This document shows positions 11,246-13,588 of a stretch of 64,000 bases of DNA, in pieces. Positions within the stretch are counted from its first letter, which is position 1. The number at the start of each line of letters is the position of its first letter. Both the position numbers and the translations under genes were made by a program. This DNA is from an uncultured Candidatus Poseidoniales archaeon (lineage in GTDB: Archaea > Thermoplasmatota > Poseidoniia > Poseidoniales > Thalassarchaeaceae): the NCBI GenBank assembly GCA_963968165.1, contig CAXAFE010000012.1, forward strand, positions 3,964 through 67,963, given 5' to 3'. The notes below the pieces were generated by a model, which saw only the letters and a program-made list of their open reading frames with translations, ran no database searches and was not told the DNA's origin.

Positions 11246-11335
11246 TACTCGTATGACGATATAGACAAAAGCACTGCGGTTTATTCAGGAGATTTTAAAT
11301 GGAGAAGTGATTAATCTTCTTCATTGGCGGCAAAG

Positions 11336-12061
11336 ATGTACGACTCAGATATTTTAAAAACACTACCAGTTAATTTGATATTAAGTATAATCGTTGGCTT
11401 GCTAGTTGGTTTTATTGAAGAAGTCCCAATCAATTTGATTCCAGATGCTTTGATATTTTGTTTAGCAGGAGGTTTAGTATTACAGGAAGTTTGGTTAGTT
11501 CAATGGCAAGGAAGACTTGGTGGGCCATATGAAAAGGAATTGCGTAGTTACACTAATAGAATGTTGAAGTTTTTTGATAATAAATTATTTTGGTTAATAG
11601 GGATATTCCTGATATTTTTTGTATTAGGATTAATTCCGCTTTTGATTTCAGACAAAGATATCGAACTAGTTTCAATCATTAGAATATTTTGTGTTTCAGT
11701 GATACTGACACTTGGAGTAGATCCAATACTCGGGACTTTACCAAAAAGGGACGGTACGACTACAGTTGGGGCATTTGTTATTTATGGTTTAGTCATTCAT
11801 TCAGGATTGAGTGGGTATCCAGAATTAGCATTGGAGCTTAATAATTACATAAGTTCTTTTTCTGCCGTTACTTGTTCATCAATTGTTTTGACTTATCTAC
11901 TATTATCAACGAGATGGGCGTATATTCGAAACCTATGTTATTTGATGGCTGATGGCTGGGAAAGTTTTACTCCGAGAATAGGAATACCTCTCTTGATTAT
12001 TTTAGCACCTGAGATTCCAAATTTCTTAGAAATAGTTGCTAAGATTTATTTAGGCTCCTAA
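11336..12061 (+). CDS. Polytopic membrane protein, unknown function
   Basis: The ORF track starts at TTG 11324; the first ATG is at 11336. There are 6-7 hydrophobic segments and no recognisable motif. Confidence 0.55.
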   Translation: MYDSDILKTLPVNLILSIIVGLLVGFIEEVPINLIPDALIFCLAGGLVLQEVWLVQWQGRLGGPYEKELRSYTNRMLKFFDNKLFWLIGIFLIFFVLGLIPLLISDKDIELVSIIRIFCVSVILTLGVDPILGTLPKRDGTTTVGAFVIYGLVIHSGLSGYPELALELNNYISSFSAVTCSSIVLTYLLLSTRWAYIRNLCYLMADGWESFTPRIGIPLLIILAPEIPNFLEIVAKIYLGS

Positions 12062-12066
12062 GATTT

Positions 12067-12522
12067 TTATAATTCAATACCTAATTCAGAAAATGGATTA
12101 ACTTCAGTTTTTATAATTGCATCGAGTTCATCGGTTGCATTCACGGAAAAGAGGCCGAAGTCGATATCTTGTCTAAGTTCTTCCAATAAATCTGGAAATT
12201 CAAAACCTTCCATAGCCATGACTTCTAAAAGATTTTTTTCCAAAGAAGTAGATATATATGCATTTAGTACAGGTTGACTGGATGCGAGGTCTAATTTAAA
12301 ACTATTAATTGCTTCCTTTGCTTTATCATTTTTCCCTCTGGAAAGTAGTCTATCTGCTTTTCTAGCATTATCTTTCGCATATGATATTCTAGAGTCAAGA
12401 ATTTTCCTTTGTTCGGCGAATTGTTCATCAAGACTAGATTTTATCTTATTTTGCTTTTTTGTCGAAAGTTTGACAAATGAACGTATTCTACTCTGAGAAA
12501 ACCATGCTATAATATTACACAC
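12067..12522 (-). CDS. Small coiled-coil protein, possible ESCRT-III/Snf7-like (third of three)
   Basis: 151 aa. Basic helical N-half (ARKADRLLSRGKNDKAKEAINSFKL) and acidic C-terminus (FPDLLEELRQDIDF...ELDAII). Overlaps the upstream gene by 8 nt. Confidence 0.35.
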   Translation of the reverse strand: MCNIIAWFSQSRIRSFVKLSTKKQNKIKSSLDEQFAEQRKILDSRISYAKDNARKADRLLSRGKNDKAKEAINSFKLDLASSQPVLNAYISTSLEKNLLEVMAMEGFEFPDLLEELRQDIDFGLFSVNATDELDAIIKTEVNPFSELGIEL

Positions 12523-13003
12523 CTCCTATAGTTGAGTCTATTTCAGACTTTAAATCACTTAAAATTCCGTCCATATTGGTGGAGAGAATGGATTCCTCAA
12601 TAATTTCTGAAAATTCTAAGGGTATTAAGTTCTTAACTTTATCTGGATCATATTGCACTCCTGCTTTGGTATCTTGAATTAGCATGACCATAAATCTATG
12701 ATAAAATTGATTTGAACGTAATAAAGTCAAGACACTTTTTGAAATGAGTATTTCAGCTTTTATTTGCCTCATCTCCATAGCAGTACCTAGTACCCTGGGT
12801 ACAGAAACTTCAATTTCCTTTTTTGCTTTATCTTTTAATTTTGAATACTTTTTTTCCATTGATTGAATTTCTTCACTCTTGCCATCTTTGGCATTGCTAA
12901 ACCTAACGAGGTGCAGTTGATGATCGTATTCGAGTTTATCGAGGTTTTTCTTTGACATTTTCGCTAAACGATCATATATTGGACGGCTCATTAAATCCCT
13001 CAA
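12515..13003 (-). CDS. Small coiled-coil protein, unknown (second of three)
   Basis: 162 aa with K/E-rich helices. Its start directly abuts the stop of the upstream gene (13003/13004). Confidence 0.4.
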   Translation of the reverse strand: MRDLMSRPIYDRLAKMSKKNLDKLEYDHQLHLVRFSNAKDGKSEEIQSMEKKYSKLKDKAKKEIEVSVPRVLGTAMEMRQIKAEILISKSVLTLLRSNQFYHRFMVMLIQDTKAGVQYDPDKVKNLIPLEFSEIIEESILSTNMDGILSDLKSEIDSTIGGV

Positions 13004-13540
13004 TTATTCTTCATTATCTAATATATCCGAATTATTAATATCTGTAGCTCTCGGTAAATTATCTCGGATGTCTTCTAGGTGATCACCCGATGCCCAAATA
13101 GGACTCTGAACAAGTTGTGCAGGATTCATGACGTTTTTATTTTGAATCATTTGTAGCATCTTTATTGTTTCATTTGTATTGTCGATTACCTGTTCAAATT
13201 TTATCTTTTCAGCACTTAATCTATCTATTATTCCAGTAGATAGTTCTATTTCTGCTGTTATTCTTTGTAACTCTTGACTATGTTTTGCATCTTCACGGGA
13301 CTTTAATTCATTTTGCTGACTTGTGAGTCTAGCTTTCTTTAATTCATTCTCCCTGATTTGAGAATCATGATCAGAAACGCTATTTTCAGAATCTGATAGT
13401 TTTTCCTTATTTCTATTTATTTCCATTTTTAAATTTTTATTCTTTCTATTAAAAGCATCTCTATATTCTTGAGGTATACCTTTTTCACGTAGCCACCTAT
13501 CATCAATCAGATCAAATGCCTTCTTCCCGAATGGCCACAT
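13004..13540 (-). CDS. Small coiled-coil protein, possible ESCRT-III/Snf7-like (first of three)
   Basis: 178 aa. The N-terminus MWPFGKKAF resembles the MxxFGK start of CHMP/Snf7 proteins. A long charged helical hairpin region follows, then FEQVIDNTNETIKMLQMIQ (compare CHMP4 ...ENANTNTEVLKNM) and an acidic tail DINNSDILDNEE. Confidence 0.4.
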   Translation of the reverse strand: MWPFGKKAFDLIDDRWLREKGIPQEYRDAFNRKNKNLKMEINRNKEKLSDSENSVSDHDSQIRENELKKARLTSQQNELKSREDAKHSQELQRITAEIELSTGIIDRLSAEKIKFEQVIDNTNETIKMLQMIQNKNVMNPAQLVQSPIWASGDHLEDIRDNLPRATDINNSDILDNEE

Positions 13541-13588
13541 ATGAACATTCTGTAAGTTGATCGATATATTAGTATATCTAATTAGATA

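Follow-up and report, generated by a model that had tools for sequence, protein, structure and literature searches.

Gene content and organisation of the cassette

The 64,000-nt stretch analysed here (hereafter the window) comes from an uncultured Candidatus Poseidoniales archaeon of the Thalassarchaeaceae (GenBank assembly GCA_963968165.1, contig CAXAFE010000012.1, positions 3,964 to 67,963 of the forward strand). Three small genes within it, here called A, B and C, had been singled out from the sequence alone as translationally coupled coiled-coil proteins with hallmarks of ESCRT-III (endosomal sorting complex required for transport III, Snf7-like proteins), and had been read either as a divergent membrane-remodelling set of the ESCRT-III/PspA superfamily or as an unrelated new coiled-coil system (the original prediction). 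A fourth gene beside A-B-C, encoding a convergent multi-transmembrane protein, was overlooked in that first reading, and together the four genes form a unit that moves as a block. Its components are listed below by window position, with the ratio of non-synonymous to synonymous substitutions (dN/dS) for A, B and C.

11336 to 12061, plus strand: polytopic membrane protein of ~241 amino acids (aa) from the ATG at 11336; the open reading frame (ORF) opens with TTG at 11324.
12067 to 12522, minus strand: gene C, 148–151 aa; dN/dS 0.06.
12515 to 12991, minus strand: gene B, 158 aa when read from the ATG that its orthologs support, with the ORF open to 13003 (162 aa); dN/dS 0.05–0.08.
13004 to 13540, minus strand: gene A, 178 aa, supported by its ORF, homologs, an AlphaFold2 (AF2) model and dN/dS of 0.04.

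The three coupled ORFs were recovered where they had been reported, and the strings MWPFGKK, FEQVIDNTNETIKMLQ, DILDNEE and ARKADRLLSRGKNDKAKEAINSFKL were all found in their translations. The genes had also been described as abutting or overlapping, of which the tight coupling stands but the abutment of A and B probably does not. Orthologs of gene B point to the ATG at 12991 as its most likely start, 12 nt past the TAA of A and with a GAGGG motif just upstream, so A and B are not strictly abutting. The ATG with which orthologs of C begin is ATT in the window (position 12513), so that translation of C starts either at GTG 12522, giving an 8-nt overlap with B, or at the non-canonical ATT 12513; the GTG immediately adjoins a GGAGG motif. 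Since orthologs keep 4-nt overlaps of the ATGA type between B and C (and, in contig L071, likewise between A and B), tight translational coupling is a conserved trait.

All four genes are under strong purifying selection as judged from comparison with genus-mates (dN/dS 0.04–0.08, with saturated dS), and their ORFs are intact across dozens of independent contigs. For gene A alone, 19 homologs were found at 56–92% identity, along with divergent orthologs at 22–38%. Database annotation never goes beyond ‘hypothetical protein’ and spurious ORFs do arise in AT-rich genomes, which might suggest chance open frames or mis-annotated non-coding sequence. However, four genes preserved intact at 22–93% protein identity, with dN/dS this low at saturated dS, effectively refute such a reading, and we regard its probability as negligible.

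The membrane-protein gene has ~6–7 hydrophobic segments, is convergent with A-B-C and ends 5 nt from the stop codon of C. Conservation as a set, on which the original prediction had partly hung, was borne out: A-B-C were kept together from 93% down to 22–31% identity in all sufficiently long contigs, and in every contig long enough a convergent gene for a ~240-aa multi-transmembrane protein followed them, save for L067, where another protein takes its place. Contigs L069 and L071 had the same gene order, their soluble proteins being 22–42% and their membrane protein 31–38% identical to those of the window. Searches with a profile of C and with the membrane-protein sequence retrieved the same 5 of 201 Poseidoniales genomes. 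The membrane protein belongs to an orphan family, for which no relation to PspB/C, LiaI or other known PspA partners was found. The locus of one divergent lineage, L067 (L067:4492-7611), carries an additional 126-aa coiled-coil gene upstream of A, and its substitute protein has a Cys-rich N-terminus and hydrophobic segments at the C-terminus.

Distribution and genomic sites

Homologs of each of the three soluble proteins were confined to Poseidoniales (Marine Group II), mostly labelled Thalassarchaeaceae. When 1.84 billion representatives were searched exhaustively with HMMER, 29 clusters in total were retrieved and no larger family was reached. The distribution is patchy even at close range: the cassette was carried by 5 of the 13 genomes of the window's genus and missing from the other 8, and among 401 genomes sampled across the phylum gene C was present in the window's own only. 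In five cassette-less genus-mates the triosephosphate isomerase (TIM) gene is followed directly by PPK2, ~85 bp apart, which represents a clean empty site. The corresponding edges in the window are as follows.

13541 to 13588, minus strand: left insertion edge, an AT-rich 48-bp spacer from the TIM stop to the start of A.
11246 to 11335, no strand assigned: right insertion edge, the intergenic region from which the membrane-protein gene and PPK2 diverge.

Presumably the left spacer holds the cassette promoter. On the right, a motif AAACCGCAG(N)GCTTTTGTCT at 11263-11282 (minus strand) lies ~30–40 bp upstream of the PPK2 start and is kept in all members of the genus, at filled and empty sites alike; it may be a regulatory element of ppk2.

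In other genera the block occupies a different position, between genes for a 396-aa and a 508–563-aa protein and near genes for a PP2C phosphatase and a MORN-repeat Ser/Thr kinase. These two flanking genes stand side by side without the block in the window's own genome (C12:41-3657), forming a second empty site. No repeats, integrase or transposase were detected at the insertion junctions, and two IMG/VR scans did not place the cassette family on viral contigs. The block is thus a discrete accessory cassette, relocated as a unit and present in few Poseidoniales lineages.

The conserved cluster flanking the cassette in other genera (L007:4751-12549) consists of genes without known function for the 396-aa protein, the 508–563-aa protein, the phosphatase and the kinase (~840 aa); in the window's genome it lies just upstream of the window, intact but cassette-free. 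Its 508–563-aa member combines a globular N-terminal domain with a long E/K/R/Q-rich coiled coil. SPFH/flotillin-like proteins are known partners of PspA and ESCRT systems, and a protein of this type was suspected here by eye; neither Pfam at E ≤ 10 nor a profile search of PDB sequences supported the assignment, and the 563-aa protein matched nothing in either database.

Predicted structures and tests of kinship with ESCRT-III and PspA

The original prediction of highly charged, helical proteins agreed with the data, as K, R, D and E account for 30–35% of residues in each of A, B and C and the AF2 models are all-helical. Rather than forming plain coiled coils, all three were predicted to open with a short helix, continue into a helical hairpin whose arms measure 41–47 residues each and close with short C-terminal helices. 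In the model of A, helices 6–19 and 24–31 precede a hairpin (34–80/89–133), further short helices and a disordered acidic tail. Conserved in this protein are the N-terminus (MWPFGKK..DDRWLREKGIP.EYRDAFN) and the segment QLVQSPIWASGD. For B, the hairpin spans ~14–59/64–110 with two shorter helices after it, and the second arm is highly conserved (LGTAMEMR...RSNQFYHR..LIQD.KAGV.YDP). The model of C (mean predicted local distance difference test score, pLDDT, 70.8) has a short helix at 10–16 and a hairpin at 21–61/65–105, with RGKND at its tip, where the basic segment noted originally does indeed sit.

The N-terminal helix of A and of C is aromatic or amphipathic, and the motif MI(S/P)WF at the N-terminus of C is conserved. 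In both proteins the most conserved parts lie outside the first hairpin arm. Those of C (EGFEFPD, DIDFGLFS and DPFxELGI) follow the hairpin, in short helices of low pLDDT, as would suit motifs that probably serve in partner binding. Net charge per 20 aa runs from +4..+3 to −4, −3 along B and from +3..+2 to −5, −4, −2 along C; in A the asymmetry is weaker, but the tail is acidic. Profile comparison with hhalign, using deepened profiles, aligned B with C over nearly their full length (score 29.4, P = 5e-4; column-shuffled controls 12.4 ± 2.1, reversed control 15.3), and the two share the N-terminal motif R-x-I-x-x-(F/L)-x-K-(L/M)-S-x-K-K. On these sequence comparisons B and C are probably ancient, distant paralogs. 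No such link between A and either B or C was seen with hhalign.

Profile searches gave no sign of an ESCRT-III/PspA relationship, and this half of the original prediction is accordingly not supported. Pfam and NCBIfam scans of the window's proteins returned nothing significant. Snf7 (PF03357) matched neither the window's proteins nor any of 50 family members scanned singly (Pfam hmmscan at E ≤ 10), and a six-frame search of the genome with PF03357 was likewise empty, the genome having no Snf7 and no PspA that passes the cut-off. A match of PspA_IM30 to the window's A (E = 0.048; A 32–102 versus profile 91–162) was dismissed because it did not recur in any of 11 other members of the A family, was out of structural register and is typical coiled-coil noise. 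Profile searches of PDB sequences produced coiled-coil noise, including, for C, Snf7 at E ≈ 9 and out of register. The best genomic PspA_IM30 match (E = 2e-5, 23.8 bits, below the cut-off; profile positions 51–148) fell in a 553-aa ORF elsewhere in the genome (C30:3614-3955, L020), which is probably a coiled-coil protein.

Comparison of profile hidden Markov models (HMMs) was equally negative. The hhalign references held 2–3 sequences each (Snf7 and Shrub; two Vipp1 and a single archaeal PspA, the sole one among 201 genomes of the phylum and absent from the other 200). As a positive control, Snf7 against PspA scored 27.3 versus 15.8 for the reversed profile. Against these references A, B and C scored 12–22, within reversed-profile noise (≤ 20): 12–15 against Snf7/Shrub, equal to shuffled and reversed profiles, and against PspA/Vipp1 16–18 for B and C, also noise, and 21.8 for A in a gappy alignment out of structural register.

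Foldseek comparison of the C model with the PDB placed Snf7 first (E 0.25, TM-score 0.46), with no match at a better E, and ~20 of the top 50 matches belonged to the ESCRT-III superfamily (Snf7, Loki CHMP4-7, Asgard ESCRT-IIIB, Vipp1, PspA, CdvB, Ist1 and CHMP2A-3; E 0.25–3). This enrichment was rejected as evidence of kinship: in a control against viral predicted structures (BFVD), uncharacterised helical proteins scored equally (E 0.3, probability up to 0.97), so the likeness of C to ESCRT-III is at the level of a ‘40+40-residue helical hairpin’. The fused model of A and B gave secondary structure that could be used, but its Foldseek matches were generic long-helix proteins only.

The partners of an ESCRT-III system were also missing. 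The absence of Vps4/CdvC from the window, noted at the outset, extends to the whole genome, and the Vps4-like ATPase with an MIT domain for which a genome search had been suggested was not found. A search for the MIT domain (PF04212) was empty for the window's genome and, in 21 relatives, gave no match that passed the cut-off, and Vps4_C matched solely Cdc48-type proteins of ~750 aa, in this genome as in relatives. Two other contigs encode, ~4 kb downstream of the divergent cassette, an AAA ATPase exceeding 700 aa (L071:11313-12471, L072:11097-12255), with two genes without known function (335 and 285 aa) in between; the part on the contig is limited to the N-terminal 386 aa, which gave neither a Pfam match nor Vps4-like evidence. 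Taken together, membership of ESCRT-III/PspA is not supported by sequence or by partners.

The window's genome encodes FtsZ, and lineage-wide conservation of the Cdv type was not seen for the cassette (5 of 201 genomes of the order, 1 of 401 in the phylum sample, and empty sites). Presence of FtsZ and this patchy distribution argue that the cassette is not core division machinery. The FtsZ itself (C4:15285-16218) is short, ~302 aa, with Tubulin and FtsZ_C domains and the GGGTGTG signature.

Candidate functions and comparison with known systems

We tentatively favour, at somewhat below even probability, the explanation that the cassette encodes a lineage-specific, membrane-associated, hetero-oligomeric hairpin scaffold, conditional in its use and comparable by analogy to PspA-PspBC or LiaH-LiaI. 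The co-translated, soluble A, B and C would assemble against the membrane, where the polytopic membrane protein and the aromatic motifs at the N-termini (MWPF.. of A, MI(S/P)WF.. of C) would recruit or anchor them. Such a scaffold would act in conditional maintenance or shaping of the membrane, in a manner analogous to PspA-PspBC, LiaH-LiaI and ESCRT-III, and would be neither driven by Vps4 nor involved in cell division. Membrane association, hetero-oligomerisation and the physiological role of the trio are what we infer. Conservation of the block, its exact co-occurrence with the membrane protein, its two genomic sites, the strong selection and the common predicted architecture all support the scaffold; the charge asymmetry of B and C, their probable paralogy, the conserved aromatic N-termini and the conserved post-hairpin motifs of C lend it further support. 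Several points weigh against it. The helical hairpin is a common fold used by many unrelated functions. The divergent L067 lineage has, in place of the polytopic protein, a non-homologous one of 375 aa that is anchored at its C-terminus. Confidence in the AF2 models, which derive from shallow alignments, is moderate (pLDDT 68–71), and those of A and B come from an artificial read-through of the two genes (the TAA of A replaced by Q), folded with an unpaired alignment.

A serious competing explanation reverses the roles, with the membrane protein as an effector and the hairpin proteins as its regulators, sensors or adaptors, for instance in a module for antiviral defence or abortive infection, or in a regulated channel or transporter. 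Because the cassette is accessory and relocating, this has to be taken seriously, even though we consider it somewhat unlikely. Patchiness within a genus, a compact relocated block and clean empty sites are typical of defence and niche-adaptation cassettes, small proteins accompany a membrane effector in some defence systems, and a PP2C phosphatase and a MORN-repeat Ser/Thr kinase adjoin the block in other genera. However, no nuclease, ATPase or other enzymatic domain is encoded in the module, its neighbours are housekeeping genes and not a defence island, and it has neither an integrase or transposase nor repeats at its junctions. Scans for a defence or phage origin gave that origin no support: PADLOC and PHROGs had no significant match (the best being a two-transmembrane effector model at E = 0.015) and both IMG/VR scans were negative.

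That A, B and C are true, extremely divergent members of ESCRT-III/PspA, forming a polymer that remodels membranes independently of Vps4 and is nucleated or anchored by the membrane protein, is in our estimate distinctly unlikely. Their plan does match α0, an α1/α2 hairpin with Snf7-like arm lengths and short α3–5, the superfamily fills much of the top of the Foldseek list for C with Snf7 first, B and C have the expected charge asymmetry, and the subunits are paralogous and in tandem. Moreover, derived ESCRT-III/PspA-like proteins barely detectable by sequence have been documented in archaea (PMC10936438). Against this, no Foldseek match reached E < 0.25 and viral helical proteins did equally well, the Pfam Snf7 and PspA models matched none of 50 members bar the one out-of-register hit, HMM-HMM scores stayed within reversed-profile noise and below the Snf7-PspA control, the exhaustive HMMER search connected to no larger family, no MIT or Vps4 protein occurs in the genome or genus, and PspA is all but missing from the phylum. 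Of the two readings offered originally, that of a new and unrelated coiled-coil system currently has the better support. We also consider it unlikely that the cassette is an unrecognised Vps4-independent machine for shaping or repairing membranes, in which A and the paralogs B and C would polymerise on the polytopic protein as a receptor, be it by ultra-divergence from ESCRT-III/PspA or by independent invention; such a machine would then belong to the planktonic archaea that are most abundant in surface ocean waters.

Very little is known of the cell biology of Marine Group II archaea, which are abundant and uncultured. If the favoured scaffold reading is true, the cassette would be a compact new membrane scaffold, built of hairpin subunits with a dedicated membrane partner and without a Vps4 ATPase, and would be relevant to the question of how frequently the ESCRT-III/PspA solution has been invented anew or has diverged past the point of recognition. 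Being present in some members of a genus and absent from others, the cassette is a candidate for a niche-adaptation or stress trait, and its occurrence could be tracked in ocean metagenomes. At present it is a well-delimited orphan operon with structural resemblance only, and its value is that of a defined target for complex prediction and heterologous expression.

When compared with ESCRT-III (Snf7/CHMP4, CdvB, Asgard ESCRT-IIIB), the cassette is predicted to have the same small all-helical plan with a putative N-terminal membrane-facing motif, a ~40+40-residue hairpin and short helices, and in both systems several paralogous subunits are encoded together. The basic core and acidic C-terminus of ESCRT-III recur in B and C, which is suggestive, not diagnostic, and the M-x-x-F-G-K-like N-terminus of A, which we take to resemble ESCRT-III N-termini, serves as a lead only. 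Unlike ESCRT-III, however, the cassette proteins have no sequence or profile similarity to the superfamily even in tests that detect Snf7-PspA, no Vps4/MIT partner in the genome, a shorter length (148–178 aa versus roughly 200–240) and, in A and C, their strongest conservation outside hairpin arm 1. The C-terminal DPFxELGI of C is unlike any verifiable motif, and the cassette is not lineage-wide in its distribution but patchy and accessory.

Archaeal ESCRT systems are defined by Vps4 together with a recognisable ESCRT-III (PMC10936438), and the survey in question makes no mention of Poseidoniales (PMC10936438). The minimal system of Thermoplasmata consists of Vps4, ESCRT-III and the arCOG07400 β-barrel protein (Makarova et al. 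2024, PMC10936438). It comes from the same phylum (Thermoplasmatota) and is likewise a compact set proposed to act on membranes, but both Vps4 and ESCRT-III are undetectable in the window's genome.

PspA, Vipp1 and LiaH (PF04012), with PspB/C, LiaI or YdjG/H/I, differ from the cassette in other respects. Their hairpin arms, at roughly 55–70 residues, are longer than the 41–47 residues predicted here, three distinct subunits take the place of one, the membrane partner is unrelated to PspB/C and LiaI, and PspA_IM30 matched only 1 of 12 members of the A family (E = 0.048). What the two share is a hairpin protein encoded beside one or more dedicated membrane proteins, and PspA-type systems are accessory, stress-linked and independent of Vps4. 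The neighbourhood link of the cassette to its own membrane protein, adjacent and co-occurring, is a PspA feature by analogy only. PspA, Vipp1 and LiaH with their membrane partners are the best functional analogy for the cassette.
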